In this document: in pieces, positions 1,472 to 28,675 of the stretch
Numbering within the stretch: the first letter of the stretch is position 1
Layout: every line of letters starts with the position of its first letter
NCBI GenBank assembly: GCA_965220745.1
Contig: CBDCQT010000011.1
Coordinates: 576,001 to 640,000, forward strand
Length of the DNA: 64,000 nt
From: Alphaproteobacteria bacterium
GTDB lineage: Bacteria; Pseudomonadota; Alphaproteobacteria; UBA828
Reading direction: 5' to 3'
Made by a program: the position numbers and the translations under genes
The notes under the pieces: model-generated
What the model saw: only the letters and a program-made list of their open reading frames with translations
What the model was told of the DNA's origin: nothing
The model's database searches: none

Positions 1472-3538
1472 ATGCGCCACATCATGGGCGTCGATATCGG
1501 CGGCACCTTTACCGATTTTTCACTGATCGACGATCGCGGCGGCATCACGCTTTGGAAGGAAGCGACGACGCCCGCCGATCCGGGGGTCGCCGTCCAGCGC
1601 GGCCTGGAAGCGCTCGCAGATGCCCAAGGTCTGGAGGTCGATTCCTTCGTTGGCAGTCTGGACCTCTTCGTGCATGGCCAGACCATCGCCACCAACACGG
1701 TGATCCAGCGCAACGGCCCCAAGACGGCGCTGCTCTGCACCGAGGGCTTCCGCGACGTTCTCTACTTCCGCGACGGCTTCAAGCCCGACCGCTACAACGT
1801 CAGCCTGCCCAGATCGAAGGATTTCATCCGCCGCGACCTGCGCCTGCCGCTCACGGAGCGGATGGACTATCGCGGCGAGCCGCTGATCGAGCTCGACGAG
1901 GACTCGGTGCGCGCCGCGGCGCGGACACTCAGCGAACAGGGTGTCGAATCCGTCGCCGTAGCGCTGCTCTGGTCCATCATGAACTCGAGCCACGAAGTCC
2001 GCGCCAAGGAGATTCTCGCGGAAGAGCTTCCGGGCGTCCCCGTGGTCCTGAGCTCGGACGTGCTGCCCATGATCCGCGAGTGGGAGAGGACATCGAGCAC
2101 CGTCCTCAGCGCTTACATCCTGCCCCGTATCTCCAGCTACATGATCGCGCTCGAGAAATATCTCTCCGAGAACGGCTTCGGCCAGAACCTGCTGGTCATG
2201 CAGCTCAACGGCGGCACGGCGACGGTCAAGCAGATCATCGAGCGGCCGATCTACGCGCTGGCCTCGGGCCCGGCGGCGGGGCCGGCTGCCGGCCTCTATT
2301 GCGCCGAGCGGGTGGGCGTCAACAACGTCATCACCATCGACATGGGCGGCACCAGCTTCGACGTCTGCATGGTGACCGACGGCGAACCTGCGCTGACCAA
2401 GGACATGCGCGTGCACGACAACCCGGTGGGCGTGGCCGCGGTCGACGTGCATTCGATCGGCGCGGGTGGCGGCAGCATCGCCTGGATCGACAAGGGCGGC
2501 GCGCTGCAGGTCGGCCCGATGAGCGCCGGCGCCGAGCCGGGGCCTGCCTGCTACGAGCTGGGCGGCGACCGGCCCACAGTGACGGACGCCAACGTGGTCC
2601 TCGGCTACATCAACCCCGATTTCTTCCTCGGCGGGCGGAGGGACATCAATCCCGATGCCTCCAACCGGGTCATCGAGGAGTCCATCGCGAAGCCGCTGGG
2701 CTTGAGCGTCGAACAGGCCGCCGACGGCATCTTCCAGATCGTCAACACCAACATGGTGGACGCGATCCGCGTCGTCTCGGTCGAGAAGGGCATCGACCCG
2801 CGCGGCTACAGCCTGGTGGTGGGCGGCGGCGCCGGCGCCATCCATGCCGGCGCGCTCGGCGTGGAGCTCGGCATGAAGCAAGCGATCATTCCGCGCTACG
2901 GCGGGGTCTTCTGCTCCTACGGCATGATCGCGAGCGACGTCCGCCACGACCTGATCAAGGCCTTCGCCACCAACACCAGCGACTTCGACCTCGCGCGTGC
3001 CAACGAGATTTTCGCCGAGCTCGAAGCCGAAGCGATCGCCGAACTCAAGGCGCAGGGCTTCGCCCGCTCGCGAATCAAGATTGCCCGCTTCGCCGACGCC
3101 AAATACTCGAACCAGATTCACGAGCTCACGATCCCGCTGCCGTCCAAGGGCAAGATCAAGAAGTCCGACATCGACAACATCGCCGAGGCCTTCCACGGCC
3201 TGCACGAGCGCATGTTCTCCTACTGCGTGCGGGAGAGCGCGGTCGACCTGTTCCACTGGCGGATCACGGCGGAGGGCCGGCTGCCAGAGCGCGAGACACC
3301 GATTCAGAAGCGCACGCGCAAGCCCGCGAGCGAGGCGCAGAAGGGCACGCGCATGGTCTATTTCAGGGCCTTCAAGAAGTACCGCCGGACCAAGATTTAC
3401 GACGGTGCCAAGGTGCGCCACGGCATGACCATCGAAGGGCCGGCCGTGGTCGAGCAGGAGAACTCGACGATCGTGGTCCAACCCAAGCACACCCTGAAGG
3501 TCAACCGCTACGACGATTTCGTCCTCGCGATCAACTGA
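1472..3538 (+). CDS. Hydantoinase A / 5-oxoprolinase ATP-binding subunit
   Basis: GVDIGGTFTD, HGQTIATN, SGPAAG, DMGGTSFD, GAGGGS, GPMSAGAEPGPACY, PTVTDA. GGAGG RBS lies before ATG 1472. Confidence 0.93.
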   Translation: MRHIMGVDIGGTFTDFSLIDDRGGITLWKEATTPADPGVAVQRGLEALADAQGLEVDSFVGSLDLFVHGQTIATNTVIQRNGPKTALLCTEGFRDVLYFRDGFKPDRYNVSLPRSKDFIRRDLRLPLTERMDYRGEPLIELDEDSVRAAARTLSEQGVESVAVALLWSIMNSSHEVRAKEILAEELPGVPVVLSSDVLPMIREWERTSSTVLSAYILPRISSYMIALEKYLSENGFGQNLLVMQLNGGTATVKQIIERPIYALASGPAAGPAAGLYCAERVGVNNVITIDMGGTSFDVCMVTDGEPALTKDMRVHDNPVGVAAVDVHSIGAGGGSIAWIDKGGALQVGPMSAGAEPGPACYELGGDRPTVTDANVVLGYINPDFFLGGRRDINPDASNRVIEESIAKPLGLSVEQAADGIFQIVNTNMVDAIRVVSVEKGIDPRGYSLVVGGGAGAIHAGALGVELGMKQAIIPRYGGVFCSYGMIASDVRHDLIKAFATNTSDFDLARANEIFAELEAEAIAELKAQGFARSRIKIARFADAKYSNQIHELTIPLPSKGKIKKSDIDNIAEAFHGLHERMFSYCVRESAVDLFHWRITAEGRLPERETPIQKRTRKPASEAQKGTRMVYFRAFKKYRRTKIYDGAKVRHGMTIEGPAVVEQENSTIVVQPKHTLKVNRYDDFVLAIN

Positions 3539-3549
3539 GGGAGCGAGAC

Positions 3550-5490
3550 ATGGCCAACATATCCACGGTGCACCGCACCGGGCCGAAGACCAAGAGCATC
3601 GCCAAGAGGCAGGTCAGGACGCGGCCCCAGAAGAGCGCCAAGACGGCCGTCGATCCGATCACCTTCTCGGTCGTTCTCAATCGCTTCAACACGATTGCGA
3701 ACGAGATGACGCTGACCATGGAGAAGACCTCCTGGACCTCGATCATCGCGCTCGCACGCGACTTCTCTTGCGCGATCTACGACGCGAAGGCGCGCCAGAT
3801 CTGCATGATGGACGCGCTGCCGGTCCACACCAACTCGATGCACGTGGTCCTGAAGGAGATCGCGCGAGTCTTCGAAGGCGACATCCACGACGGCGATGTC
3901 ATCGTCTGCAACGACGCCTACAGCGGCAACACCCACGTCGGCGATTTCGTCACCGCCTGCCCGGTGTTCCACAAGGGCAAGCACATGTTCTGGAGCATGA
4001 CCAAGGGCCATCAGCTGGATTGCGGTGCCTTCATCCCCACCAGCACGCCCGCCGCCGCCAAGGACGTTTGGCAAGAAGGGCTGCAGCTGCCGCCGATCAA
4101 GTTCTACGAGAAGGGCCAGCGGCGCGAGGACGTGGTGCGCATGTACCTTGCCAACGTGCGCTGGCAGGAGTGGCTCTACGGCGACCTGATGGCGCAGCTC
4201 GGCTCGATCTGGACCGGCAAGCGGCGGCTCATCGAGCTTGCGGCGCACTACGGCAACGACGAGGTGGAGCGCTATATCGAGGCGATCTTCGACTACGCCG
4301 ACCAGCGCATGGCCCAGGAAATCCGCCAGATGCCGGATGGCGACTACGAGGGCACATCCTGGCTCGACACCGACGGCCAGGGCGGCACCGACATTCCCGT
4401 GAACGCGCGGGTCTCGATCCGGGACGACCGGGTCCACGTCGATTTCGGCGGCTCCGCACCGCAGACGCCGGGCGCCAACAACTCCTCCTTCGGCGTCATG
4501 CAGGCCGCGGCGGGCATCCCGATCCTCTGCACGATCGACCCCTCGATCCCCCACAACGACGGCTGCCTGCGCCACATCACGGCCGAGGCCCCGCTCGGCT
4601 CGGTGTGCAACGCGCAGTATCCGGCCTCCACCGCGCTCGCCACCATCGGCCCCGACGACACCATGCAGGACGCCGTCTACAAGGCGCTCGCCCACGCGGT
4701 GCCCGAGCGGGTTACCGGCGGGAACGGCCGGGTCAGCTGCGTGCCCTTCTTCTCGGGCACCGATACCCGCGACGGGCAGGACCGTTCCTGGGGCTGCATG
4801 TTCTTCAACGGCGGGCCGGCGGGCGGGGCATCCTCGAAGGAGGACGGCTGGCCGCTCCTCATCACGTCGGCCGGCATGGGTGGACTCAAGATCCTGAGCG
4901 TCGAGATGAGCGAGATGCTCTACCCCATGCGCGTCGATAAGCAGGAGATCGGCGCCGATTCCATGGGGCACGGCGAGCATCACGGCGGCCCCGGCGTCGA
5001 AATTCAGATCACGCCCATCGGCGGCCCGATCGAGTGCCACCTGTTCGGCGACGGCACCGCCAATCCGCCTCACGGCGTGATGGGCGGCACGACCGGGATC
5101 GGCGGCGGCAGCTACAAGGAGAACCTGGAAACGGGCAAGCGCACCTATTGCTCCTCGAAGGGGCTCCTCATGATCGAGGAGAACGAGGTTTGGGTGGCGC
5201 ACTCCAGCGGCGGCGGTGGCTACGGCGATCCGTTGAAGCGCGATCCCGAGGCGGTGCTGGAGAGCATCTTCGAGGGGCTGCTCACGGTCGAATGCGCGAC
5301 CGAGGTCTATGGCGTCGTCATCAACAAGGCGACCATGACCATCGACTGGAACAAGACCGAGGCGCGGCGAGAGCAGATAGCGGCCGAGCGCGGTCCATTG
5401 GAGGTGGTGGTACCGACCACGCCAGGCGCCTCCGACTGGATTCCGAAGCGGCTCCGGGACGGCGACGAATATCTGATCGATCCGCAATGA
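3550..5490 (+). CDS. Hydantoinase B / oxoprolinase subunit, paralog B1
   Basis: DPITFSVV, RDFSC, NDAYSGNTHVGD, KGHQLD, EGLQLPP, GGGGYGDP. AGGGAG RBS before ATG 3550. This is the C-terminal part of track ORF 1552..5490. Confidence 0.93.
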   Translation: MANISTVHRTGPKTKSIAKRQVRTRPQKSAKTAVDPITFSVVLNRFNTIANEMTLTMEKTSWTSIIALARDFSCAIYDAKARQICMMDALPVHTNSMHVVLKEIARVFEGDIHDGDVIVCNDAYSGNTHVGDFVTACPVFHKGKHMFWSMTKGHQLDCGAFIPTSTPAAAKDVWQEGLQLPPIKFYEKGQRREDVVRMYLANVRWQEWLYGDLMAQLGSIWTGKRRLIELAAHYGNDEVERYIEAIFDYADQRMAQEIRQMPDGDYEGTSWLDTDGQGGTDIPVNARVSIRDDRVHVDFGGSAPQTPGANNSSFGVMQAAAGIPILCTIDPSIPHNDGCLRHITAEAPLGSVCNAQYPASTALATIGPDDTMQDAVYKALAHAVPERVTGGNGRVSCVPFFSGTDTRDGQDRSWGCMFFNGGPAGGASSKEDGWPLLITSAGMGGLKILSVEMSEMLYPMRVDKQEIGADSMGHGEHHGGPGVEIQITPIGGPIECHLFGDGTANPPHGVMGGTTGIGGGSYKENLETGKRTYCSSKGLLMIEENEVWVAHSSGGGGYGDPLKRDPEAVLESIFEGLLTVECATEVYGVVINKATMTIDWNKTEARREQIAAERGPLEVVVPTTPGASDWIPKRLRDGDEYLIDPQ

Positions 5491-5504
5491 GCGGGAGCAA
5501 CGCC

Positions 5505-6419
5505 ATGGCGAGGCTCAATACATTCGATGCCGACGTCGGCGCAGATTCGTTGGCGGCGGCGATCAAGCGGGACGGCTATGTGATCGTGCGGGAGCTTCTC
5601 GATCCTGAGACCCTTGCGCGGCTCTCGGGCGAGCTGACCCCGCATCTGGAGGCGACGGATCTTGGCGACCCCGACGCCTTCATGGGGCACAAGACGAAGC
5701 GCTTCGGCGCGTTGCTCTCACGCTGCCCGACGAGCCGCGACATGGTGGTCCATCCGCTGGTGCTGGAGATCGCTGACCGCGTCCTCGGGCCGTATTGCGC
5801 GCGCTACCAGGTCCATTACACCGGAGTGATGCACGTCGAGCCCGGCGAGACCGTGCAAACGATGCACCGGGATACCGGCCTCTTTCCCATCCAGAACCCC
5901 GCGCCGCCGCTGACGCTCGCGACCATGTGGGCGGTCAGCGACTTCTCGGTGGAGAACGGGGCGACCCGCATCGTGCCGGGGAGCCACCAATGGCCTGACG
6001 AGCGCATACCGGAGCCGGACGAGATAAAGCAGGCGGAAATGCCGGCCGGTTCGCTGCTGATGTACGTGGGCAGCGTGATCCATGGCGCCGGCGCCAATCG
6101 CTCGAACGCCGCTCGCTGCGGTGTCGCGCTTCACTACGCGCTCGGCTGGCTGCGCCAGGAGGAGAACCAGTACCTCGCCGTGCCGATGGAGGAGGCGCGG
6201 ACCTTCCCCCATCAGTTGCAGTGCCTGATGGGCTACGACCTGGGCACAGTTAACCTGGGGTTCGTCGACCACAAGCATCCGAACGACATCCTGAACGGCA
6301 CCGCCGGCGATCAGGCCGGCGTGCTCGGACCTCAGGAGCTGATGGATGCGGACAACGCGATCCAGCGCTTCAAGGTCGAAGGCACAAAGGCCGTCGGCCG
6401 CGCTCGCATGAGTGTGTAA
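5505..6419 (+). CDS. Phytanoyl-CoA dioxygenase (PhyH) family Fe(II)/2-oxoglutarate oxygenase
   Basis: DGYVIV, H-x-D (MHRD), NGATRIVPGSH, distal IHGAGAN..R, WLRQEEN. Alternative start at 5487 overlaps the B1 stop. Confidence 0.88.
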   Translation: MARLNTFDADVGADSLAAAIKRDGYVIVRELLDPETLARLSGELTPHLEATDLGDPDAFMGHKTKRFGALLSRCPTSRDMVVHPLVLEIADRVLGPYCARYQVHYTGVMHVEPGETVQTMHRDTGLFPIQNPAPPLTLATMWAVSDFSVENGATRIVPGSHQWPDERIPEPDEIKQAEMPAGSLLMYVGSVIHGAGANRSNAARCGVALHYALGWLRQEENQYLAVPMEEARTFPHQLQCLMGYDLGTVNLGFVDHKHPNDILNGTAGDQAGVLGPQELMDADNAIQRFKVEGTKAVGRARMSV

Positions 6420-6461: not shown

Positions 6462-7367
6462 TCATAGCGGATCCCAGCTGAACACGTCGCCGGAGCGGTC
6501 CAGCGCGGCGAAGTGGCCCTGCAGCGCCGGCACGGCGTGGTCGGCGATCGCTTGCACGTCCCACCCCTCGCTCCGGTGGACGCTGCGGGCGGGCCGGAAA
6601 GGATCGAAGAGGAAAATCTCGTTGTGGCGTGTCCCGAAGACCTGGCCTGAGATGTCGCGCGCCGCGTCGGACGCGAGAAACACGGCGAGCGGCGCGTTCT
6701 TCTCGGGCGTCATCTTCTTGAGGCGCTCGATCCGCTCCCGTTGCTCGTCCGTGTCGGCCGGGATTTCGCTCGTCATCCGGCTCCAGGCGAAGGGCGCGAT
6801 GCAGTTGGAGCGCACGTTGAAGCGCTTCATGTCGAGGGCGATCGACTTGGACAGCGCGCAGATGCCGAGCTTGGCCGCCGCGTAATTCGCCTGCCCGAAG
6901 TTGCCGATCAGCCCGGACGTGCTGGTCATGTGGACGAAGGCGCCCGACTCCTGACGCCGGAAGTGCTCCGCCGCCGCGCGGCTCAGGAAGAAGCTGCCGT
7001 TGAGATGCACGCCGACGACGGAGAGCCATTGCTCGGCCGTCATCTTGTGGAAGATGGTATCGCGCAGGATACCGGCGTTATTCACCACGATGTCGATCCG
7101 CCCGAAGGCATCGAGCGCGGTTGCCACGATGGCGCGGGCGCTCTCCCAGCTCTCGACGCTGTGCGTGTCGATGGCGGCGGTGCCGCCGTCTTTCTCGATC
7201 AGCCGCTTGGTCTCCTCGGCTGGGGTCGCCGAGCCGCCTTCGCCTGTGACCGAGACGCCGATATCGTTGACGACGACGGAAGCCCCGGTCTGCGCGAGCG
7301 CCAGTGCGATCTCACGGCCGATGCCGCCGCCCGCGCCGGAGACGATTGCAACCTTTCCCTCGTTCAC
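6462..7367 (-). CDS. SDR oxidoreductase (3-hydroxyacyl-CoA dehydrogenase/MFE-2-like)
   Basis: SGAGGGIG, VVVND, NNAGILRD, GNFGQANYAAAK. Confidence 0.9.
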   Translation of the reverse strand: MNEGKVAIVSGAGGGIGREIALALAQTGASVVVNDIGVSVTGEGGSATPAEETKRLIEKDGGTAAIDTHSVESWESARAIVATALDAFGRIDIVVNNAGILRDTIFHKMTAEQWLSVVGVHLNGSFFLSRAAAEHFRRQESGAFVHMTSTSGLIGNFGQANYAAAKLGICALSKSIALDMKRFNVRSNCIAPFAWSRMTSEIPADTDEQRERIERLKKMTPEKNAPLAVFLASDAARDISGQVFGTRHNEIFLFDPFRPARSVHRSEGWDVQAIADHAVPALQGHFAALDRSGDVFSWDPL

Positions 7368-7388
7368 CGTTCATCTCCCATCATTGCG

Positions 7389-8234
7389 TCACCCGAAGGT
7401 CGCGAGGCCGTTGCGCAGGACCAAGACGTCGCGCTCGACGGCGCGCGCGCGAAAGGCGCCGTTCCGCCACATCTCCACCTCGACGGTCTCCCCCGGAAAG
7501 ATCGGCGCCGAGAACCGCGCGGACATGCTGCGGAGCGATCCGGGATCGTCGGCAGCGAACGCGCGCAGAATGGCGTGGCAAGCGATGCCGAAGGTGCAGA
7601 GCCCGTGGAGGATCGGCCGCTCGAAGCCCGCCTTCTGCGCGACTGCAGGGTCGAGATGGAGCGGGTTGGGATCGCCATTCAGGCGATAAAGGAGAGCCTG
7701 TTCCGGACGCGTGGCAATGGCAACGGTGCGGTCGGGCTGGTCGCCCGGTTCCTCCGGCGCGGGACGCGGCGTGCCGGAGGGGCCATCGTAGCCGCCGTCG
7801 CCCCGGAGCATGATCGTGCGCGTCTCGGTCGTGATGACCGCGCCCGTGTCTGTGTCGCTGAGCGTCTTTTCGAGATAGAGCAGCGCGCCCTTCTGCGCTC
7901 CCTTGTCGACGATATCGACGATTCGGGTCTTGCCGACGACCGTACCGGCGCTGGGGATGGGTGCCTTCAGGGAGAATCCCTGCTCGGCATGGACGACCCG
8001 GCCCGCGTCGACCGTGGTGCGCGGATCGGCCAGCCAGAAGCCGGGATGGCCGAGCACCGAGCAGAACGACGGTACGATGCGGGGGCCCTTGTGGTCATCC
8101 ACGAATTGCAACTGCCACGGGTCGAGAGGATCGTGGCCGAGCCCGATTGACAGCGCGTAACGCACCGAGTCGAGCGGGCCGTAAGTCTGCCGGGCCTCGG
8201 GAATCTCGAAGCCCATGAGGGCATCGTAGTTCAC
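7389..8234 (-). CDS. MaoC-family double hot-dog (R)-specific enoyl-CoA hydratase
   Basis: YRLNGDPNPLH hydratase-2 motif, PILHGLCT, RFSAPIFPGE. Confidence 0.9.
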   Translation of the reverse strand: MNYDALMGFEIPEARQTYGPLDSVRYALSIGLGHDPLDPWQLQFVDDHKGPRIVPSFCSVLGHPGFWLADPRTTVDAGRVVHAEQGFSLKAPIPSAGTVVGKTRIVDIVDKGAQKGALLYLEKTLSDTDTGAVITTETRTIMLRGDGGYDGPSGTPRPAPEEPGDQPDRTVAIATRPEQALLYRLNGDPNPLHLDPAVAQKAGFERPILHGLCTFGIACHAILRAFAADDPGSLRSMSARFSAPIFPGETVEVEMWRNGAFRARAVERDVLVLRNGLATFG

Positions 8235-8325
8235 GGTGCGGAGGTCTCAGAGCGCGGTGGGTTGCTCACAGCCGTCGCAATGAGGTGAGGGTTATGCTGC
8301 AGATTGAGCCGGCGCGGTGGGTCAT

Positions 8326-9528
8326 TCAGCCGTCGTAGTGTCCGACGATCGCGACGCTGCAGACGTTCTGCACGGGATGGCCACCCAGGTTGTGGGTCAG
8401 ACCGTAGCGCATGGAATCGATCTGGCGCTCCTCCGCGCGGCCGTGGAACTGCAGATAGATCTCGTAGAGCATCCGCAGGCCGGAGGCCCCGATGGGGTGG
8501 CCGAAGCACTTCAGGCCGCCGTCGATCTGGCACGGCATGTCGCCATCGGCATCGTAACGGCCGTCGAGCACCGCCTTCCAGGCCTGGCCCTCGTCGGCGA
8601 GGCCGAGGTCCTCCATCGTCACCAGCTCAGTGATCGAGAAGCAGTCGTGGACCTCGGTGGCACTGATCTCCTTGCGCGGATCGTCGATGCCGGCTTCCTC
8701 GTAGGCGCGCTGGGCGGCGATGCGCGTGGTCTTGAAGTGGGCGCCGTTCCAGCTGTTGAAGCCGATCTCTTCGCCGTTCGAGACGCTGAGCTGCAAACCC
8801 TTGACCGTCACGACGTTCGTTTTGCCCAGGGTCATGGCGATCTCGGGCGTGGTGACGATGGCGCAGGCCGCGCCGTCGCTGACGCCGCAGCAATCGAACA
8901 GGCCGATGGGCTCCGCGACCATCGGTGCCCCGATCGCCTGCTCGTGGGTGATCTCGCGGCGCAAGTGCGCCTTGGGGTTGCGCGCGCCATTGGCGTGGCT
9001 CTTGACCGAGACGTGAGCCATCGCGCGCTTGAGATCGTCCCTGTCGATGCCGTGGGCGCCGCGGTAGCCGGCCGCGAGCTGCGCGAAGGCGCCCGGCGCG
9101 GAGACGTTGGGGGAGAACAGATCGTTGGTCACCCCGCGGGTCCGGGCCGGCAGGCCGCCATAACCAGTGTCCTTCAGCTTCTCCACGCCAAGCGCGAGCG
9201 CGAAGTCCGCAGCACCCGAGGCCACCGCGTAGCAGGCGCCGCGGAAGGCTTCCGTTCCGCTCGCGCACATGTTCTCGACGTGCGTGACCGGGATGTAGCC
9301 GAGCCTGAGCGAAGTCGCGAGCGGCAGCGCGCTCGGCCCGACGTTGACGGAGTCGAACGCCGTGCTCAGCCACGCCGCATCGATCTGCGAGCGTTCGATC
9401 CCGGCGTCGGCGATGCACTCCTCGAACGCCTCGGCCATCAGGTCCGAGGGCTCGGCATCCCACCGCTCGCCGAACTTCGAGCAGCCCATGCCGAGGATTG
9501 CCACCTTGTCTCGAATTCCGCTGGCCAT
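8326..9528 (-). CDS. Thiolase-family protein (SCP2/acetyl-CoA acetyltransferase type)
   Basis: ENMCASG, DCCGVSDGA, EVHDCF, GGLKCFGHPIGASG. Confidence 0.9.
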   Translation of the reverse strand: MASGIRDKVAILGMGCSKFGERWDAEPSDLMAEAFEECIADAGIERSQIDAAWLSTAFDSVNVGPSALPLATSLRLGYIPVTHVENMCASGTEAFRGACYAVASGAADFALALGVEKLKDTGYGGLPARTRGVTNDLFSPNVSAPGAFAQLAAGYRGAHGIDRDDLKRAMAHVSVKSHANGARNPKAHLRREITHEQAIGAPMVAEPIGLFDCCGVSDGAACAIVTTPEIAMTLGKTNVVTVKGLQLSVSNGEEIGFNSWNGAHFKTTRIAAQRAYEEAGIDDPRKEISATEVHDCFSITELVTMEDLGLADEGQAWKAVLDGRYDADGDMPCQIDGGLKCFGHPIGASGLRMLYEIYLQFHGRAEERQIDSMRYGLTHNLGGHPVQNVCSVAIVGHYDG

Positions 9529-9554
9529 GTTCGTTCTCCCCGCGCTGCAGCGCC

Positions 9555-12546: not shown

Positions 12547-12549
12547 CGC

Positions 12550-16657: not shown

Positions 16658-16671
16658 TTCGGGGGAGGGGT

Positions 16672-17482: not shown

Positions 17483-17821
17483 ATGAGCGGCATCAAGGTT
17501 ATGAGTTTGGGCGACGCGGAGGTTTACGAGGACGAGACCGTCATCAGCCGTCGCCTCGTCCGCCGCGCGCACGGGTCGGAAGAAATGTCGCTCAACGTCT
17601 CGACCCTGATGGAAGGCATGGAAGATCCGGACTGCGTCTATGCCGACTACGACGAGATCGTCTATGTCCTGAGCGGCACCGCGGAGTTGACCATCGACGG
17701 CGAAACGCAGACGGTGGGCAAGGGAACCGCCTTCTACGTCCCGCGCGGGGCCTCCTACGGCTACAAGGTGATCGAGGGACCCAATGACGTGATCGCGGTG
17801 TTCACGCCGGCCAAGACCTAG
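17483..17821 (+). CDS. Cupin-domain protein
   Basis: EIVYVLSG...TIDGE...G.AFYVPRG cupin pattern. The usual metal-binding His residues appear replaced. Confidence 0.8.
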   Translation: MSGIKVMSLGDAEVYEDETVISRRLVRRAHGSEEMSLNVSTLMEGMEDPDCVYADYDEIVYVLSGTAELTIDGETQTVGKGTAFYVPRGASYGYKVIEGPNDVIAVFTPAKT

Positions 17822-20227: not shown

Positions 20228-20246
20228 TGCCTGAGGCGAGCTTCCG

Positions 20247-21017
20247 TTGAAGATCGCGGACAAGTCCGTCGTCGTCACTGGCGGCGCGAGCGGGATCGGG
20301 CTCGCGCTGGCGCGTCGCTTCAGGGCGGAGGGCGCGCGAGGCATCGTTCTGGCCGATCTGCAGGAGGACGCCCTGTTGAAGGCCTCCGGCGAGATCGACG
20401 CCCTGGCGGTTCCCTGCGATGTGGCGGACGAAGCCGACATCAAGCGCCTCGTTGCCGCTGCGGAGGACGCCTTTGGGCCGATCGACGTGTTCGTCTCCAA
20501 TGCCGGGATCGCGCGCATGGGCGGCGTCGATGCCCCGGATGAGGAGTGGCGGCAGAACTGGGACATCCACGTCATGGCCCACATCTACGCGGCGCGGGCG
20601 GTGGCGCCCAAGATGGCGGCGCGCGGCAGCGGCTATCTGGTCAACACGGCATCGGCCGCGGGCCTCCTCAGCCATGTGGAATCGGCGACCTATACGGTGA
20701 CCAAGCATGCCGCCGTGGCCTTCGCCGAGTGGCTCTCGATCGCCTACGGCGACCGGGGGGTGCGGGTTTCGGTGCTCTGCCCGCAGGCGGTCCGCACCGC
20801 AATGCTCACGGGCCGGGACGAGGGCGTCGCCAGCCTCGACGGCGTGCTGGAGCCGGAACAGGTGGCCGACAGCGTGATCGCGGCGATGGAGCGGGAGGAG
20901 TTCTTGATCCTTCCCCACGCCGAGGTGCAGGGCTACGTGGAGCGCAAGGCCTCGGATCGCGAGCGCTGGCTCAGGGGGATGCGCAAGCTGCGCGCGGCAC
21001 ACGGAGGAGCCGCCTAG
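20247..21017 (+). CDS. SDR family oxidoreductase
   Basis: TGGASGIG, SNAGI, NTASAAG, YTVTKHA. TTG start. Confidence 0.9.
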   Translation: MKIADKSVVVTGGASGIGLALARRFRAEGARGIVLADLQEDALLKASGEIDALAVPCDVADEADIKRLVAAAEDAFGPIDVFVSNAGIARMGGVDAPDEEWRQNWDIHVMAHIYAARAVAPKMAARGSGYLVNTASAAGLLSHVESATYTVTKHAAVAFAEWLSIAYGDRGVRVSVLCPQAVRTAMLTGRDEGVASLDGVLEPEQVADSVIAAMEREEFLILPHAEVQGYVERKASDRERWLRGMRKLRAAHGGAA

Positions 21018-21020
21018 CCC

Positions 21021-22772
21021 ATGGGCCGTCGTTTGAGCCGGGTGGAGGCCCACGAGCGCCTTGTGGGCGCCGGGCTCCCCTTCGCGCTTGAAGAGATCGA
21101 GATCCGGGGCGTCGTCGTCCGTGCGTGGACGAACGCGCCGCGCACGCTTGGCGACGTTCTTGCCGCCTCGGCAGAGCATGGCGAGAGGGCGTGCCTCGTG
21201 CTCGACCGCGAGCGCCTGAGCTACGCCGACCACCATCGCCAGGCGTGCCGGTTGGCGCAGGCCCTGCGGACGCGCTACGGCATCCGTAAGGGCGACCGGG
21301 TCGCGATCGCGATGCGCAACCTGCCGGAATGGTCCGTCGCGTTCTGGGCCATCACCGGCATCGGCGCCATCGTGGTGCCCCTCAACGCCTGGTTCACCGC
21401 ACGCGAGCTCGCCTACTGCGTGGCCGATTCCGGTTCGCTGGTGGTGGTGGCGGACGGCAAGCGTGCGGCGCTGCTCGCCTCCTGTGAGGAAGACCTCGGC
21501 CTGCGGGGCCTGATCGTCGTGCGCGGCGAGGAGGCTGAAGTCAGTGACGGCGTTGCACTCTGGAACGACGTGCTCGCCACCGCAGACGACGATCAATCGC
21601 TTTCTGACGTGCCGATCGAGCCCGACGACGACGCCACGATCTTCTATACCTCCGGCACCACGGGGACGCCCAAGGGCGCGGTCGGTACGCACCGCAACAT
21701 CTGCACCAACATCATGACGGTGGCCTACCGCGGCGCCGTGCGGCAGCTCGGTCGCGGCGTGACGCCGGTGTGGCTCGGCGGGCCGGTGCCGCATCCCACA
21801 GTGCTGGTGCCGGCGCCGTTCTTCCACGTCACCGGCTGCCACTCGATCCTGGCGCCGGCCATCTTCGGCGGCACCACCCTGATCCTGATGCATCGGTGGG
21901 ACCCGGAGCGGGCGCTCGCGCTGATCGAGCACGAGAGCGTCACGCATTTCACCGGCGTGCCGGGCATGGCCCTGCAGATGCTCGAATCGCCGGGCTTCGC
22001 CGACCACGACACCTCGTCGCTGATCGGCCTCAACTATGGCGGCACGCCGCCACCGGTCAGGCTGCTGGACCGTATTGCGGAGCTGTTGCCGCAGGCGGAG
22101 GCCGAGAACGGCTACGGCCTCACCGAAGCCTCCTCCCTCGTAAGCTACAACGCGGGCGAGAGCTATCGCCGCCACCCTGACAGCGCCGGCATTTCCGTGC
22201 CCACGTGCGACATCAAGATCGTCGACGAGAGCGGCGTGACGGTGCCCGCAGGCGTGCGCGGCGAGGTCTGCGTGCGGGGGCCCAACATCGTCAGGGGCTA
22301 CTGGAACCAGCCCGAGGCGAGCGCCGAGACCTTCCGCGACGGCTGGCTGCACACCGGCGACATCGGGCTGCTGGATGAGGACGGTTTGCTCTTCCTGCTC
22401 GACCGCGCCAAGGACATGCTGATCAGGGGCGGCGAGAACGTCTATTGCGTCGAGGTGGAGAACGCGCTTTGTAGTCACCCGGCGGTCAAGGACGCGGCCG
22501 TGATCGGCAAACCGCACCCTGTGCTCGGACAGGAGGTCGCGGCGGTCGTGCAGGTCTCGGCCGGGCAGGCGGTGGGCGAGGCGGCGTTGATCGAGCATTG
22601 CCGCTCGCGCATTGCCGCGTTCAAGGTGCCGGCGACGATCGAGGTGCGGACCGAGCCGCTGCCGGTCAACGCGAACGGCAAGGTCATCAAGCGGCAGCTT
22701 CAGGACGAGCTGTTTGCGGTTTCGGACGAAGGAACGGGCTGCAGCGGCGGCCAACCGAGCGACGAGCGATAG
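21021..22772 (+). CDS. Class I adenylate-forming enzyme (acyl-CoA synthetase, FadD-like)
   Basis: YTSGTTGTPKG, GYGLTE, WLHTGD, DRAKDMLIRGGEN, NGKVIK. Confidence 0.92.
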   Translation: MGRRLSRVEAHERLVGAGLPFALEEIEIRGVVVRAWTNAPRTLGDVLAASAEHGERACLVLDRERLSYADHHRQACRLAQALRTRYGIRKGDRVAIAMRNLPEWSVAFWAITGIGAIVVPLNAWFTARELAYCVADSGSLVVVADGKRAALLASCEEDLGLRGLIVVRGEEAEVSDGVALWNDVLATADDDQSLSDVPIEPDDDATIFYTSGTTGTPKGAVGTHRNICTNIMTVAYRGAVRQLGRGVTPVWLGGPVPHPTVLVPAPFFHVTGCHSILAPAIFGGTTLILMHRWDPERALALIEHESVTHFTGVPGMALQMLESPGFADHDTSSLIGLNYGGTPPPVRLLDRIAELLPQAEAENGYGLTEASSLVSYNAGESYRRHPDSAGISVPTCDIKIVDESGVTVPAGVRGEVCVRGPNIVRGYWNQPEASAETFRDGWLHTGDIGLLDEDGLLFLLDRAKDMLIRGGENVYCVEVENALCSHPAVKDAAVIGKPHPVLGQEVAAVVQVSAGQAVGEAALIEHCRSRIAAFKVPATIEVRTEPLPVNANGKVIKRQLQDELFAVSDEGTGCSGGQPSDER

Positions 22773-22789
22773 CGGCGGGAGAACCGGAC

Positions 22790-24199
22790 ATGGACATCGA
22801 ACAGGCCCACAACCTCTCTCTCGAGGAGATGGACAAGCAGAGCTTTCTGCACCCCTACACGGCTCTCAAGCCGCATCTCGAGAACGGGCCCAACATCATC
22901 AAGTCGGGCAGCGGCGTGCGGCTCACCAACGCGGCGGGCAAGTCGTACATCGACGGCATGGCCGGCCTCTGGTGCGTCAACATCGGCTGGGGCCACCGGG
23001 AAGTGGTCGACGCGATCACCGAGCAGGCCGAGAACCTGGCCTACTACCACAGCTTCTTCTCGATGGGGACGGAAGCGCCCATCCGCCTGGCGGACCGCAT
23101 CCTGCGCCTGGTGCCCGGCAACATGAGCAAGGTGTTCTTCGGCAATTCGGGCTCGGACGCGAACGACACCAATGTAAAATTGGTTCACTACTACAACAAC
23201 TTGCGCGGCAAGCCCGAGAAGAAGAAAATCATCTCCCGTAAGCGGGCTTACCACGGCGTCACGGTCGCGTCGGCGAGCCTGACAGGATTGCCGAGCATTC
23301 ACACGGCGTTCGATCTGCCGCTACCGACAGTCCTCCATACCGAGACCCCGCACCACTGGCGGAACGCCGAGCCGGGGATGAGCGAGCGCGACTTTTCCAA
23401 GTGGTGCGCGCAGAAGCTGGAGGAGATGATCCTCGCCGAGGGGCCAGAGACCGTGGCCGCGTTCATCGCCGAGCCGGTGATGGGCGCGGGCGGCGTGATC
23501 ATCCCGCCGGAGGGCTATTTCCCCGAAATGCAGAGGGTTCTGCGCAAGTACGACATGCTGATGATCGCCGACGAGGTCATCACCGGCTTCGGTCGCACCG
23601 GCAACTGGTTCGGCTCCCAGACCTACGACATCGAGCCCGACATCATCACCATCGCCAAGGGGCTGACGAGCGGCTACGTGCCCATGTCGGGCAGCATCAT
23701 CTCCGACGAGATCTGGCAGGTGATCAAGGAGGGGGCGCCCGGCGTCGCATACTTCGCGCACGGCTACACCTACTCCGCACATCCCGTGGCGGCGGCGGCG
23801 GCCATGGCCAACATCGACATCATGGAGCGGCTGGACCTGCCGGCGAAATGCGCCGAGGTCGGCAGCTACTTCCAGCGGCGGCTGCGCGAGGTCGCCGCGG
23901 ACCATCCTCTGGTCGGCGAGGTGCGCGGCGAGGCCCTGCTGGCGGCCGTCGAGCTGGTCAAGGACAAGGAGACCAGGGAGTCCTTCGACCCCGCCCTGCT
24001 CGTGGGGCCGACGCTGAGCAAGTACACGATCGAGGAGGGGCTCATCATCCGCGCCCTGCCGCTCAGCGATGCAGTCTCCTTCTCGCCGCCCCTGGTCATC
24101 ACCGAGGCCGAGGTGGACGAGGCGCTCGTGCTGTTCAAGCGCGCGTTGGATCGCGTCACCGACGAGCTGGTCAAGGACGGCACTTGGACGCCTAAGTAG
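22790..24199 (+). CDS. Class III PLP aminotransferase (omega-amino acid/amine transaminase type)
   Basis: DGMAGLWCVNIG, SGSDAND, AYHG, IAEPVMGAGG, DEVITGFGRTG, AKGLTSGY. Confidence 0.93.
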   Translation: MDIEQAHNLSLEEMDKQSFLHPYTALKPHLENGPNIIKSGSGVRLTNAAGKSYIDGMAGLWCVNIGWGHREVVDAITEQAENLAYYHSFFSMGTEAPIRLADRILRLVPGNMSKVFFGNSGSDANDTNVKLVHYYNNLRGKPEKKKIISRKRAYHGVTVASASLTGLPSIHTAFDLPLPTVLHTETPHHWRNAEPGMSERDFSKWCAQKLEEMILAEGPETVAAFIAEPVMGAGGVIIPPEGYFPEMQRVLRKYDMLMIADEVITGFGRTGNWFGSQTYDIEPDIITIAKGLTSGYVPMSGSIISDEIWQVIKEGAPGVAYFAHGYTYSAHPVAAAAAMANIDIMERLDLPAKCAEVGSYFQRRLREVAADHPLVGEVRGEALLAAVELVKDKETRESFDPALLVGPTLSKYTIEEGLIIRALPLSDAVSFSPPLVITEAEVDEALVLFKRALDRVTDELVKDGTWTPK

Positions 24200-24219
24200 T
24201 CCGCTCGTCGGCCGATAGG

Positions 24220-26025
24220 ATGGAGAGCGCGGTCGTCAATCCGCGCGACCTGCGGTTTCAGCTCTTCGACGTGCTGGGCGCGGACGCGCTGTGTGCGCGC
24301 ACGCGCTACCGCGACCATGACCGCGAGTCCCTGGAGGCCGCCCTCGATCTCGCCGTTCAGATCGCGGACGAAGTGCTCTGGCCCAATGCGCCGATCGGCG
24401 ACAGGGACGAGCCCAGGCTCGAGAACGGCCGGGTGCGCGTGCCCGCCGCCATTCACGAGAGCGTGGCCGCGATCACCGATGCGGGTTTCATTGCTGCCGC
24501 GCTCGACTACGACCGGGGCGGCATGCAGCTTCCCGCCGTGCTCCTGCAGGCCTGCCTTGGCGTATTGAAGGCGGCCGATACGGCGACGGCCGGCTACCTG
24601 ATGCTGACCAAGGCGGCGGCCAATCTGCTCGACGTTCACGGCACCGACGAGCAGAAGCGGCTCTACATGGAGCCGCTCTACGCCGGGCGTTTTCTTGGCA
24701 CGATGTGCCTCTCGGAGCCCGACGTGGGCTCGTCATTGGGCGATATCAGGTGCCGGGCGGTGCCCGCCGGCGATGGCAGCTACCGGCTCTCCGGCAGCAA
24801 GATGTGGATCTCCGGCGGCGACCAGGACATCTCGGAGAACATCGTCCACCTGGTTCTCGCGAAGCTCCCCGACGCGCCGCCCGGCGTGAAGGGGATCTCG
24901 CTCTTCATCGTGCCGAAGATCCGGGTGAAGGCCGACGGCACGCTCGGCGCCGCCAACGATGTCGCCGTGGCCGGCCTCAATCACAAGATGGGCTACCGCG
25001 CGATCTCGAATTGCCTGCTGAGCTTCGGCGAGAACGGCAACTGCGAGGCGCACCTGGTGGGCGCTCCCCACGAGGGCCTCGCCTGCATGTTCCACATGAT
25101 GAACGAGGCGCGGATCGGGGTCGGCATCAGCGGCGCCATGATCGGCTATGCGGGCTACATGCAGGCGGTCCGTTACGCCAGGGAGCGGCGCCAGGGCCGG
25201 CCGGTCGATAACCGCGATCCATCGCAGCCGCCCGTGCCCATCGTGCGCCACGCCGACGTGAAGCGCATGCTGCTCAAGCAGAAGGCGATCGTCGAGGGAG
25301 CGCTCGCGCTCTGCCTGACCTGCGCGTGCTATCTGGACGACATGACCACGGCGGAGGGCGAGAACGAGCGGCGGCGGGCCGCCCTGCTGCTCGACATTCT
25401 TACGCCGATCGCCAAGGCCTGGCCCGCGGAGTTCTGCCAGGAGGCCAACAGCCTCGCGATCCAGGTTCACGGCGGCTACGGCTACACGCGGGACTTCCCG
25501 GTCGAACGGCTCTACCGCGACAACCGCCTCAACGCGATCCACGAGGGGACGAACGGCATCCAGGCGATCGACCTGCTCGGGCGCAAGGCGCGCTTGCGGG
25601 ACGGCGCCGCGCTCACGGCGTTGATGGAGGAAATCCGTGCCGATATCGACGCGGCGCGAGACCTGCCCGCCCTCGCCGAGTATTGCGGCGCGCTGGAGGC
25701 CGTCGCGACCGAGATCGAGAACGCCACGACCGCCATCGGCGCAGCACGCGCGGAGCGTCGGATCGGGGACTCGCTCGCGAACGCGAGCCTCTATCTCAAC
25801 GCCTTGGGCCACATCGTCGTCGCGTGGCTCTGGCTGCGCCAGGCGCGCGCCGCGGACGACGCCCTCCGGCAAGGCGCGGTCACGGACGACGCAGCGTTCT
25901 ACCGTGGCAAGCTCGCGGCCTGCCGTTACTTCTTCCGCTACGAGCTGGCCGGGATGAGACCCGCCATCGCGCTGCTCGCGCGGGTCGATACGACCTGTGC
26001 CGAGATGGACACGAACATGTTCTAA
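24220..26025 (+). CDS. Acyl-CoA dehydrogenase
   Basis: GTMCLSEP, GSKMWISGG, KMG, MMNEARIG, QVHGGYGY, IHEGTNGIQ. Confidence 0.93.
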   Translation: MESAVVNPRDLRFQLFDVLGADALCARTRYRDHDRESLEAALDLAVQIADEVLWPNAPIGDRDEPRLENGRVRVPAAIHESVAAITDAGFIAAALDYDRGGMQLPAVLLQACLGVLKAADTATAGYLMLTKAAANLLDVHGTDEQKRLYMEPLYAGRFLGTMCLSEPDVGSSLGDIRCRAVPAGDGSYRLSGSKMWISGGDQDISENIVHLVLAKLPDAPPGVKGISLFIVPKIRVKADGTLGAANDVAVAGLNHKMGYRAISNCLLSFGENGNCEAHLVGAPHEGLACMFHMMNEARIGVGISGAMIGYAGYMQAVRYARERRQGRPVDNRDPSQPPVPIVRHADVKRMLLKQKAIVEGALALCLTCACYLDDMTTAEGENERRRAALLLDILTPIAKAWPAEFCQEANSLAIQVHGGYGYTRDFPVERLYRDNRLNAIHEGTNGIQAIDLLGRKARLRDGAALTALMEEIRADIDAARDLPALAEYCGALEAVATEIENATTAIGAARAERRIGDSLANASLYLNALGHIVVAWLWLRQARAADDALRQGAVTDDAAFYRGKLAACRYFFRYELAGMRPAIALLARVDTTCAEMDTNMF

Positions 26026-26107
26026 GCGCAAAGCCGCTATGATCGGCCGCGGCACCGGGCGCCGGGCCGCGCGCCGCAACCGATATCCAGGGCAAGGGGA
26101 GATGGAC

Positions 26108-26593
26108 ATGGCCGAGCTCACGCTGGAGCAACGGGTTCAACGGATCGAGGACGCCGAAGAGATCAGGCGCCTGCGCTATCTCTACTGCGAGTACGGCAAC
26201 CTCTACGACGCCGAGCGCTTCGCCGCCCTCTTCGCGCCGGACGCGATATGGGACGGGGGCGATGCCTTCGGGTGCCAGGAGGGGCTGGAGCAGATCGAGC
26301 AGATGGTGCGCGACGCGGGCGAGCGAATCCGCTTCTCCGCCCATTACATCACGAACGAGCTGATTGAGGTCGACGGCGACAGCGCAACCGGGCGCTGGTG
26401 GCTGTTCATGCCGTGCGTCCTGGACGGCGAGTCGACCTGGCTCTTCGCCACATACGACGATGAGTACGTGAAGCTCGACGGGCGCTGGCTGATCAAGAAG
26501 ATCGTCCTCGACGTAAAGAACTTCGCACCCCAAGACAAAGGCTGGGCCGAGAGCGCCAAGCCCTGGGTCGACGATCACTGGAAAGGGCCCTGA
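26108..26593 (+). CDS. SnoaL/NTF2-like protein (LinA/BaiE/scytalone dehydratase-like), copy 1
   Basis: IEDAEEIRRLRYLYC...LFAPDAIWD...HYITN...DGDSATGRW...YDDEY...GRWLI. Alternative start at 26102. Confidence 0.85.
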   Translation: MAELTLEQRVQRIEDAEEIRRLRYLYCEYGNLYDAERFAALFAPDAIWDGGDAFGCQEGLEQIEQMVRDAGERIRFSAHYITNELIEVDGDSATGRWWLFMPCVLDGESTWLFATYDDEYVKLDGRWLIKKIVLDVKNFAPQDKGWAESAKPWVDDHWKGP

Positions 26594-26731
26594 GCCCCCG
26601 GCGCAGAAGACCCCTTGCACCGCCGCACCCGCCGACGGCAAGCTGCAGGCGCGGCGGGCGGACGGTTCCTTCCGCGCCGCAGTGAGTACAAACGCGCGCA
26701 GACATCACATCACACGCAGACAGGGTGAGAC

Positions 26732-28675
26732 ATGGCTTCGACTTCCACAGCGCGCCGCGCCGTGCGGCAGATCAAGGACCAGGACAAGCCCAAGCCGGCC
26801 GCCAGAAAGCGCGGCAACGGTGCTGCAGGCGCCGTCGATTCGATCACCTTCTCCGTCATCCTCAATCGCTTCTCCACCATCGCGAACGAGATGACGCTGA
26901 CCATGGAGAAGACCGCCTGGACCTCGATCATCGCGCTGGCACGCGACTTCTCCTGCGCGATCTACGACGCCAAGGCCCGGCAGATCTGCATGCAGGATGC
27001 CCTGCCGATCCACACGAATTCCCTGCACGTCGTGCTGGGCGAGATCGCGCGGGTCTTCGAGGGCGATATCCACGACGGCGACGTCATCGTCTGCAACGAC
27101 GCCTACAGCGGCAACACCCATATCGGCGATTTCGTCACCGCTTGTCCCGTGTTCCACCAGGGCAAGCACATGTTTTGGAGCGTGGCGAAGGGCCATCAGC
27201 TCGATTGCGGCGCGTATATCCCGACCAGCGTGCCGGCGCCCGCCAGGGATGTCTGGCAAGAGGGGCTGCAGCTACCGCCGATCAAGTTCTACGAGAAGGG
27301 CCAGCGGCGCGAGGACGTGGTGCGCATGTACCTCGCCAACGTGCGCTGGCAGGAATGGCTCTACGGCGACCTGATGGCGCAGCTCGGCTCGATCTGGACC
27401 GGTCGGCGTCGCCTCGTCGAGCTTGCGGCGCACTACGGCAACGACACGATCGAGCGCTACGCCGAGGCGATCCTCGATTACTCCGACAGGCGGATGGCCG
27501 ATGAAATCCGCGCCATCCCCGACGGCGACTACGACGGCATGTCGTGGCTCGACTCGGACGGCCATGGCATGACGAACATCCAGGTCGGCGCCCGGGTCTC
27601 GGTGCGGGGCGAGAACGTGCACATCGATTTCTCGAATTCGGATCCGCAGGTTCCGAGTGGGAACAACTCGTCTTACGGCGTGATGCAGGCTGCGGCGGGT
27701 ATCCCGGTGCTCTGCTCCATCGACCCCACCATTCCTCACAACGACGGCTGCCTCAGGCACATCACGGCGGACGCGCCCAAGGGCACCGTCTGCAACGCCG
27801 AGTACCCGGCGTCCACGGCGCTCGCCACCGTGGGGCCCGGCGATACCATGCAGGAGGCGGTGTGGAAGGCGCTCGCCCACGCCGTGCCGGAGCGCGTCAT
27901 GGGCGGCAGCGGCAAGGACGGCAACCTGCCGATGTTCTCCGGCACGGATACGCGGAGCGGCAAGCCGGTCGACTGGGGCTGCATGCTGTTCAATGGCGCG
28001 CCCGCCGGCGGCGCCACGTCGTCGGCCGACGGCTGGCCGCTGATCATGACCTCGGCCGGCATGGGTGGCCTCAAGATCATGAGCGTCGAGCTCTGCGAGC
28101 TGTTCTACCCCTACCGCATCGACCGCCAGGAAATCGCGGCCGATTCTATGGGGCACGGCAAGCACATCGGCGGCCCCGGCGTGGATATCCAGGTCAGCCC
28201 GACCGACGGCGGCTTCCAGGTCGAGCTCTTCGGCGAGGGCCAGGGCAACCCGCCCTTCGGCGTGATGAACGGCACGCCCGGCATCGGCGGCGGTAGTTAC
28301 AAGGAGAATTTGGAGACCGGCAAGCGGACCTATTTCTCCTCCAAGGGCCGCTTCTATATCGGAGAGAACGATATCTGGGCGGGCACGTCGAGCGGGGGCG
28401 GCGGTTACGGCGACGCGCTGGAGCGCGATCCGGAAGCCGTGCTGGAGAGCGTTTTCGACGGCATGCTGTCGCTCGAATGCGCCGAAGACGTCTACGGCGT
28501 CGTGATCAACCGGGCGATGATGACCATCGACCGGGCCAAGACCGAGAAACTGCGCGCCAAGATGGCGGCCAAGCGCGGCCCGCTCCAGGTGACCTCGCCC
28601 AGCCGTCCCGGTGCCGCCGACTGGATTCAGAGAAAGCTGCGCCAGGGCGACGAATACCTCGTGGACGCGCAATAG
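26732..28675 (+). CDS. Hydantoinase B / oxoprolinase subunit, paralog B3
   Basis: DSITFSVI, RDFSC, NTHIGD, KGHQLD, GGGGYGD. Confidence 0.93.
   Translation: MASTSTARRAVRQIKDQDKPKPAARKRGNGAAGAVDSITFSVILNRFSTIANEMTLTMEKTAWTSIIALARDFSCAIYDAKARQICMQDALPIHTNSLHVVLGEIARVFEGDIHDGDVIVCNDAYSGNTHIGDFVTACPVFHQGKHMFWSVAKGHQLDCGAYIPTSVPAPARDVWQEGLQLPPIKFYEKGQRREDVVRMYLANVRWQEWLYGDLMAQLGSIWTGRRRLVELAAHYGNDTIERYAEAILDYSDRRMADEIRAIPDGDYDGMSWLDSDGHGMTNIQVGARVSVRGENVHIDFSNSDPQVPSGNNSSYGVMQAAAGIPVLCSIDPTIPHNDGCLRHITADAPKGTVCNAEYPASTALATVGPGDTMQEAVWKALAHAVPERVMGGSGKDGNLPMFSGTDTRSGKPVDWGCMLFNGAPAGGATSSADGWPLIMTSAGMGGLKIMSVELCELFYPYRIDRQEIAADSMGHGKHIGGPGVDIQVSPTDGGFQVELFGEGQGNPPFGVMNGTPGIGGGSYKENLETGKRTYFSSKGRFYIGENDIWAGTSSGGGGYGDALERDPEAVLESVFDGMLSLECAEDVYGVVINRAMMTIDRAKTEKLRAKMAAKRGPLQVTSPSRPGAADWIQRKLRQGDEYLVDAQ

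Follow-up and report, generated by a model that had tools for sequence, protein, structure and literature searches.

A single HyuA-type subunit gene with three HyuB-type paralogs in an alphaproteobacterial gene cluster: a candidate shared-subunit system

The closest described relatives of the genes treated here are two-subunit enzymes. In CapAB of Pseudomonas jessenii the ATP site lies in subunit A and the metal site in subunit B, with a 40 Å tunnel and an A-B-B-A tetramer, and in all mechanisms proposed for the enzyme the lactim is activated in A, either directly or via carboxyphosphate (PMC8453981). OplA and OplB of Pseudomonas putida, obtained from separate cells, regain activity on mixing and are inactive alone, OplB also when given ATP; acetyl or carbamoyl phosphate replaces ATP at 10% activity with both subunits present (PMC11033972). 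Gene adjacency is therefore not needed, and a fairly generic activation by A is plausible. The caprolactam route proceeds via an omega-aminotransferase and then beta-oxidation (PMC6061476). One ATP-using subunit common to several specificity subunits is established for mycobacterial AccA3 with AccD4, AccD5 and AccD6 (PMC4347857). The present analysis concerns a 64,000-nucleotide stretch (the window) from an alphaproteobacterium of the lineage UBA828 (genome G000, contig C11, positions 576001-640000), in which one A-type gene, A1, occurs with three B-type genes, B1, B2 and B3. This arrangement of one A for three B's is real and replicated in relatives; what is new is one A for several B's, while the family and the AccA3-type logic are known. 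It is probable, judging from sequence comparisons, that A1 is shared and that B1-B3 open different lactam-type substrates.

The genome has 4.82 Mb in 13 contigs (99.96% complete, 5.2% contaminated, ~67% G+C), and the six nearest database records, 85-99% identical to B2, are metagenome-assembled genomes (MAGs) of Alphaproteobacteria or Rhodospirillales. By their sequences A1 and B1-B3 are HyuA/HyuB-family (CapAB-like) hydantoinase/oxoprolinase subunits. The A1 domains Hydant_A_N, Hydantoinase_A and Hydant_A_C score 158, 303 and 73 bits against cut-offs of 25, 23 and 21, and the protein carries Lys29 besides its ATP motifs; the B subunits have a full Hydantoinase_B domain (481-490 bits, model positions 1-519). 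The B1 residues D72, H130, D133 and H155, present in all clade members compared, align with the metal ligands Asp41, His99, Asp102 and His124 of CapB. A preliminary description of the window had quoted putative ligand motifs (DFSC, THxGD, KGHQLD), nine variable segments and the gene positions, with B1 directly after A1 and B2 and B3 standing alone, and all of these were recovered as written. The sequences also indicate that the proteins are neither caprolactamases proper nor ketone carboxylases. The NCBIfam caprolactamase models NF050156/NF050157 give 716 and 381-397 bits, below the cut-off of 1000. The ketone carboxylase assignment was rejected on weak profile scores and on the lack of a PF08882 subunit (Acx-gamma/Apc-beta small subunit) at the cluster, this domain having three matches in the whole genome and none on contig C11.

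Six-frame searches of the whole genome yielded 37 A-domain matches, 36 of them full-length and one distant and partial, and 47 B-domain matches. A same-strand A lies within 400 bases of 34 B's or is fused to them; 13 B's have none, and two full A's are without a B. The earlier view of A1 as the single A does not hold at this scale, nor within the window, which contains the 5' part of a second A gene (A0, minus strand, from 1270). A1 is nevertheless the sole A of its clade in the genome, its nearest paralog being 45% identical. B2 and B3 are 71% and 76% identical to B1 (mutual range of the three 68-77%), and any other B reaches at most 39%. No A gene is found within 14 kb of B2 or within 23 kb of B3. 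The search for further A genes that had been proposed detected none dedicated to B2 or B3 in this genome, nor in the near-complete G018, G011 and G008, where all candidates were scored.

Across the 34 adjacent pairs the identity between A's is correlated with that between their B's (Pearson 0.83, Spearman 0.71, 0 of 2000 permutations), and in 23 of them A and B share their nearest neighbour. A and B thus normally duplicate and diverge together, B2 and B3 being the exception: by sequence, B was triplicated without A. Eleven B's of the genome, spread over at least five separate clades, are left with no A that would be theirs; each shows 59-93% identity to some A-paired B. One clade comprises seven B's, against two A's (C5:284293, C10:321638, 323411, 551063, C13:147643, 293601, 400761). 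The expansion of the family is very large, same-genus genomes having 18-45 A and 22-58 B. In five further near-complete genomes (G008, G011, G016, G017, G018) the B/A counts are 42/34, 58/45, 50/39, 23/19 and 22/18, approximate numbers as queries and thresholds differed among relatives; in each of the six genomes counted, B's outnumber A's. A plasmid collection gave one match only, at 44%.

The combination recurs in relatives. Twenty same-genus genomes were searched, with at most the 28-30 best candidates scored in each; seven hold exactly one A of at least 95% identity and all three B types among these candidates, and in those of the remaining 13 the A1 and B1-B3 types were not found at that level. 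Alignment searches with all candidates scored gave one clade A each, with gene order kept, in G011, G008 and the single-contig G018. G021, which belongs to a different genus of the family, carries a single A (62%) and a single B (61%), as does G043. In two MAGs of 40% G+C (G041, G042) one A of 80-81% identity (next A 38%) is followed by three B's in direct tandem, and two more B2-like genes lie upstream in the same cluster, making five clade B's on the contig of the A. One of these upstream copies is cut by the contig end (G041) and one is frameshifted (G042); a sixth G042 copy, in an apparently duplicated contig, was left out of the count. A1 retrieved 27 metagenome loci. Eleven have an A of at least 78% identity, five of which show at least two clade B's, three one within the flank, and three end too early. 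At the 16 loci with an A of 62-71%, nine show one B and seven none, where short flanks may hide distant copies. The B2 and B3 types never occur without an A1-clade gene in the genomes examined (8/8, plus G041 and G042).

In the B tree, from which the G015 B1 and the broken G042 copy were omitted, the low-GC copies fall within the B2 group (100/100), and copies from four other loci within the B3 group (100/99). These duplications are therefore older than those lineages, the A staying single. A monophyletic group of all multi-copy B's without the single visible B of locus L036 was not retained, as the best tree puts B2 outside (95/95; constrained approximately unbiased test, p-AU 0.055), which leaves more than one order of the duplications possible. 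The aminotransferase and beta-oxidation gene kinds of the cluster travel with it from genomes of 67% to genomes of 40% G+C.

B2 and B3 are not pseudogenes, a possibility discarded because of their intact frames, upstream purine runs resembling ribosome-binding sites, and ratios of nonsynonymous to synonymous substitution rates (dN/dS). Compared with five orthologs each, B2 gives 0.06-0.21 and B3 0.04-0.12, and B1 gives 0.09-0.14 with four; by this sequence measure B2 and B3 are under purifying selection. The B1 ortholog of G015 (L065:5043-6980, G015:C34) has an in-frame TGA at codon 548, with A1, B2 and B3 intact there, which is either a strain-level loss or an assembly error. Contigs of a sponge metatranscriptome library (X1) match 17642-18140 and 18778-19406 at B2 and 28285-28798 at B3 with 93-96% identity, in a comparison stretch that excludes A1 and B1. 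Their depth is low and flat, also over the divergent intergenic region, so that they may stem from carried-over DNA.

The paralogs differ more in their barrel domain, where the three B pairs are 62/67/56% identical, than in the N-domain (residues 36-236), where they are 84/91/81% identical. The amino-terminal halves had been called nearly identical, which is too strong for a domain identity of 81-91% and a first ~35 residues that barely align. Gene conversion was considered for the similar amino-terminal halves and rejected, third-position identity being ~0.7 along the whole half. Fixed differences among B1-B3 amount to 110 sites. The preliminary description had placed the differences in three short segments of the carboxyl-terminal half; these do hold CapB pocket positions, but the fixed sites spread beyond them. 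For the pocket, the 15 CapB residues of Marjanovic et al. (PMC8453981) were mapped via a phmmer alignment to 6YRA_B and compared in 22 sequences (7, 8 and 7 orthologs per group), with sites treated as independent. Fixed differences between paralogs occur at nine of the 15, and variation inside an ortholog group at none; among the 564 other core sites the corresponding numbers are 101 and 144 (Fisher p=4e-4). The modelled A-B interface described below has fixed differences at 9 of 48 positions (p=0.007 against the pocket). The pocket signatures read LLVTIDVVMNTAGLF in B1, LLIVIGIVMNSAAQF in B2 and LLIVVGDLMNTAGLF in B3, B2 differing from B1 at 7/15 and B3 at 6/15. Seven of the 15 positions are in or beside the three segments, which means that pocket-lining loops had been picked. 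The 18 of 31 fixed differences that fall inside the segments were not used, since segments chosen for variability make that count circular. In the low-GC lineage the B2-like pockets differ from that of B2 at 5-7/15.

In a sister clade (A 44% and B 41% identical to those of the window) a single A goes with a pair of B's that have 78% identity, an arrangement seen in seven further same-genus genomes (loci L006-L012 of G004, G005, G009, G013, G014, G019 and G020). The order is A-B-...-B with an ABC ATPase gene between the B's, and its B types differ at 4/15 pocket positions, each invariant within its type.

The pocket data bear on whether three B's sharing A1 could all have the same chemistry, the copies then providing dosage, different promoters (B1 with A1, B2 and B3 with the catabolic operon) or kinetic variants. 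B1 and B2/B3 are indeed in different transcription units, broken copies occur in G015 and G042, most pocket changes are conservative (V/I, I/V, V/L), and B3-like pockets are found twice in L031/L033 and G042. Against this stand the pocket residues fixed between and invariant within the types, with the non-conservative D370G, V396D, L447Q and T440S/S441P. In addition, paralog pairs of one genome fall below own-A pairs in pocket identity at equal overall identity in 13 of 15 cases (mean residual -0.13), and the copies of the A-B-B-B tandems all lie under one promoter. We regard a common chemistry as unlikely, and different substrates for the three B's as the better account.

The surface that would face the A subunit shows another pattern. 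A complex of A1 (1-610) with B2 (36-395) was modelled, using a mark that 116 of 157 solved complexes and 2 of 215 mismatched pairs reach. The score was 0.81 (best of three controls 0.00), with at least 97% of the contacts agreeing between runs and partner pLDDT (predicted local distance difference test) of at least 89, as expected from the likeness to the solved CapAB. The model expresses this likeness and is not proof that the copy binds, as close cousins of true partners often pass. It defines 50 contact positions, 39 of which are invariant across the 22 sequences. Interface identity to B1 is 88% for B3 and 84% for B2, and 48% for the next B of the genome. Between G000 and G018 the interface differs at 1/50 positions in B2 and 0/50 in B3, against 12% and 7% elsewhere in the two proteins. 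From this conservation B2 and B3 would still bind an A of A1 type.

The constrained surface also bears on the idea that B2 and B3 work without any A, on a chemically activated substrate or small phosphodonors, or in a non-catalytic role. The replacement of ATP by acetyl or carbamoyl phosphate in OplAB offers some ground for it, in an assay with both subunits present (PMC11033972). The inactivity of OplB alone with ATP reported in the same source, the intact metal ligands, the A-facing surface of B2 and B3 that remains constrained, and the constant company of an A1-clade gene all speak against it, and it is highly improbable.

B2 and B3 could instead use another A: A0, a lone A or, promiscuously, any of the 36 A's. 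A0, whose full span is G000:C11:575237-577270, is oriented divergently to A1 and has its own B next to it, outside the window; it stays near the cluster in G008, G011, G018, G041 and G042, accompanied by its B even in the last two, low-GC genomes. The two lone A's exist, the controls of the complex model included no non-cognate A, and pairing in trans seems to occur in this genome. The lone A C13:407720 is 72% identical to an A whose B is 59% identical to the lone B C13:156941. The lone A C13:477385 groups with a carboxylase-like pair and is matched by the lone B C10:750438, which has an acetone-carboxylase-gamma-like match at its carboxyl-terminal end. These distant phylogenetic matches suggest, as far as sequences go, pairing in trans. 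However, A and B phylogenies agree, and the lone A's, only 34-37% identical to A1, have lone B's that match them better. A0 and A1 have 37% identity, the B of A0 and B1 26%; A0 shares 31% of the interface residues of A1, and its B 26% of those of B1, against the 84-88% of B2 and B3. A0 is not a likely partner of B1-B3, and use of any other A by B2 and B3 is quite unlikely.

The preferred account, a shared A1 with B's of different substrate range, can be formulated as follows. By analogy, A1 and B1-B3 would be CapAB/HyuAB-type ATP-dependent hydrolases of cyclic amides (lactam or hydantoin-like), an activity with which the omega-aminotransferase in the cluster is consistent. A1 would bind ATP and activate the lactim form of the substrate, directly or through carboxyphosphate; the activated intermediate would travel the tunnel into B, where the metal site would open the ring, within an A-B-B-A complex. 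As the sequences show, the B of one A-B pair was duplicated several times without its A, and the copies stayed intact under purifying selection in several lineages, with an A-facing surface nearly unchanged and pocket residues that changed and then froze. The single A1 may assemble with B1, B2 and B3 after translation, and each B may open a different related ring compound or act at a different step in the breakdown of one compound. The resulting omega-amino acids might then pass to the class III aminotransferase, CoA ligase and acyl-CoA dehydrogenase of the cluster, as in the caprolactam route.

A variant of this scheme has obligate mixed tetramers (A-B1-B2-A, A-B1-B3-A) carrying out consecutive ring openings of one polycyclic substrate. 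The region corresponding to the CapB-CapB interface shows conservation, with 34 of 46 sites invariant, the copies all lie together with a single catabolic route, and AccA3/AccD4/AccD5 is a known case of one alpha carrying mixed beta subunits (PMC4347857). Yet the number of B's per A ranges from 1 to 5 among relatives, and the conservation of the B-B region is explained by metal-site residues that are also there, which makes obligate mixing very unlikely.

Several observations weigh against A1 shared by B's of different specificity. The G015 stop and the G042 frameshift would fit either an error of assembly or a turnover of copies that are partly redundant. Among kin genomes the whole cluster is gained or lost together, which means that the eight cases of one A to three B's are not independent. 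At equal divergence, B's that would share an A show no greater interface conservation than own-A B's (mean residual -0.01 helix-defined, -0.04 model-defined), in G042 interface identity falls to 64-80%, and A1 has no clear hub-like slowing (A minus B identity -0.03 to +0.06, versus -0.09 to +0.05 in 1:1 pairs). Interface conservation implies only an A of that type, so that the case for A1 itself rests on no other such A existing. Specificity could be set by A, because the substrate passes A first in all proposed CapAB mechanisms. The pocket list derives from a 4.0 Å structure through one pairwise alignment, and Tyr136, the acid/base candidate of CapB, is T, V and V at position 167 of B1, B2 and B3. 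The preliminary proposal of a shared A with swappable B's thus keeps the lack of a dedicated A, the recurrence of one A with several B's, A-B-B-B tandems included, and the pocket fixed between and invariant within types. Its expectation that variable residues line the pocket is borne out by the nine fixed-different positions; that of a conserved interface is met by the 84-88% identity, although this does not exceed the family norm.

The features of the locus are collected in Table 1. An accessory sub-operon of its own for each B, as had been proposed, is not seen: B2 and B3 lie in one run of twelve plus-strand genes (15989-29174) with gaps of at most 139 bases, in which no plus-strand terminator-like site was detected. 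A scan for promoters and terminators found 1 and 7 sites, versus 1.6 and 5.3 expected, none informative. The ABC transporter is kept in G018, G042 and L031, and its binding protein had no match in a PDB search at 1e-8, hence no substrate clue. The block from SDR to the ChsH2-like/KAS-III fusion is missing from the corresponding place in G018. B4, earlier named as a fourth partner of A1, does not qualify, with 32% interface identity to B1 and 29% overall; it is 59% identical to the B half of the A-B pair G000:C13:849536.

Table 1. Features of the A1/B1-B3 locus (window positions)
Feature	Position	Strand	Remarks
A0, second hydantoinase/oxoprolinase A, 5' part	1..1270	-	divergent; runs off the left end
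A1, ATP-binding ASKHA-fold A subunit	1472..3538	+	ATG start; PF05378/PF01968/PF19278; motifs DIGGT, DMGGT, GAEPGP
B1, metal-binding B subunit	3550..5490	+	PF02538; starts 11 bases past A1
B1 residues 393-447	4723..4887	+	the three variable segments of the preliminary description
PhyH-family dioxygenase	5490..6419	+	coupled to B1
SDR, MaoC dehydratase, thiolase, ChsH2-like/KAS-III fusion	6462..10985	-	
Branched-chain-type ABC transporter: binding protein, 2 permeases, 2 ATPases	11076..15943	-	divergent from the B2-B3 operon
GNAT-like protein, SDR, cupin	15989..17821	+	head of the B2-B3 operon
B2, intact B subunit without adjacent A	17851..19803	+	PF02538; most divergent paralog
PPOX-class protein, SDR, acyl-CoA ligase, aminotransferase, acyl-CoA dehydrogenase, SnoaL-like protein	19829..26593	+	
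Class III (omega) aminotransferase	22790-24199	+	best PDB matches are 4-aminobutyrate/omega-transaminases
B3, intact B subunit without adjacent A	26732..28675	+	PF02538
Second SnoaL-like protein	28710..29174	+	end of the plus-strand run
B4, B subunit without adjacent A, other clade	31794..33656	-	Hydantoinase_B domain

Between B3 and B4 are a YhfX-like gene with a pyridoxal-phosphate/alanine-racemase fold (29228-30451, minus strand) and a major facilitator superfamily transporter gene (30520-31797, plus strand), both absent from that place in G018. The segment 33814-37447 codes for an aspartate aminotransferase, a molybdo-protein and a second class I aminotransferase; we take the molybdo-protein (34919-36166) to be MsrP/YedY-like. 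Further along the plus strand, 41216-45437 is presumably a general L-amino acid ABC transporter of the Aap/Bzt type, 48169-49565 holds what appear to be two similar tandem BON-domain-like lipoprotein genes, a label given from sequence appearance, and 57463-63645 is taken as an ordinary hrcA-grpE-dnaK-dnaJ-dapB housekeeping run. On the minus strand, 56977-57270 is assumed to be a small HigA-like antitoxin open reading frame upstream of an RNase E/G-like gene, probably preceded by a short toxin gene.

On a wider scale, we put forward tentatively, as a possibility that falls short of probable, that B-only duplication is a general way for these marine alphaproteobacteria to widen ATP-dependent ring-opening. 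The A subunits would then be clade-specific activation hubs, which may supply carboxyphosphate, and the B's would be pocket modules open to swapping and mixing. Mixed A-Bx-By-A tetramers, if they form, could give truly combinatorial enzymes, up to five B's per A having been seen. In HyuAB, CapAB and OplAB the choice of substrate may lie with A or with B, and A may hand over either a phosphorylated substrate or carboxyphosphate; a single A accompanied by three to five naturally occurring B's a few pocket residues apart is a ready-made experiment on this question. The proteins, if the proposal is true, would be a modular set of catalysts for opening stable lactams such as nylon monomers and N-heterocycles. 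It would also give a first handle on the enrichment of hyuA and hyuB in sponge symbionts (PMC5649159) and on the role of 36-47 paralogs per cell. Annotators should not mistake lone hydantoinase-B genes for debris.

Among described systems CapAB (PDB 6YRA) is the top PDB match of A1 and the B's (E 7e-148 and 1e-101). The proteins share with CapAB and with OplAB of P. putida KT2440 the ATP motifs, the four metal ligands and separate A and B genes, and the cluster shares an omega-aminotransferase, an ABC transporter and beta-oxidation genes with the caprolactam cluster (PMC6061476). CapAB and OplAB are 1:1 systems, in contrast to one A for three B's here, and besides the replaced Tyr136 the vicinal Cys410-Cys411 of CapAB corresponds to AG/AA/AG at 442-443 of B1/B2/B3. 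Likeness to the N-methylhydantoinase/HyuAB/5-oxoprolinase family is seen in full-length domains far above the Pfam cut-offs and in the second PDB match, 7HK5. The characterised members in Table 1 of PMC8453981 are 1:1 pairs or A-B fusions, unlike the present arrangement; PMC9477822 deals with a 1:1 pair, and hyuA and hyuB slightly apart are reported at one locus (PMC10470539). A full-text literature search, with subscription papers and supplements outside its reach, returned no description of an A shared among several B's in the HyuA/HyuB family. Acetone and acetophenone carboxylases (Acx, Apc) have homologous large subunits, with weak B scores (E 1e-38 to 1e-18). Apc has unequal subunit numbers, two A-type per one B-type (PMC8453981; PMC13677872), and thus multiplies A, whereas the cluster described here multiplies B. 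The mycobacterial AccA3 differs in its unrelated fold and in biotin carboxylation, and its sharing by AccD4, AccD5 and AccD6 was shown by pull-down, where that of A1 is deduced. The logic is the same, an ATP-using activating subunit with specificity paralogs, and mixed complexes, possible for AccA3/AccD, are likewise conceivable here (PMC4347857). As in that system, activating genes are fewer than specificity genes with no dedicated partner, and specificity residues diverge while the interface is kept, here no better than in own-A pairs.

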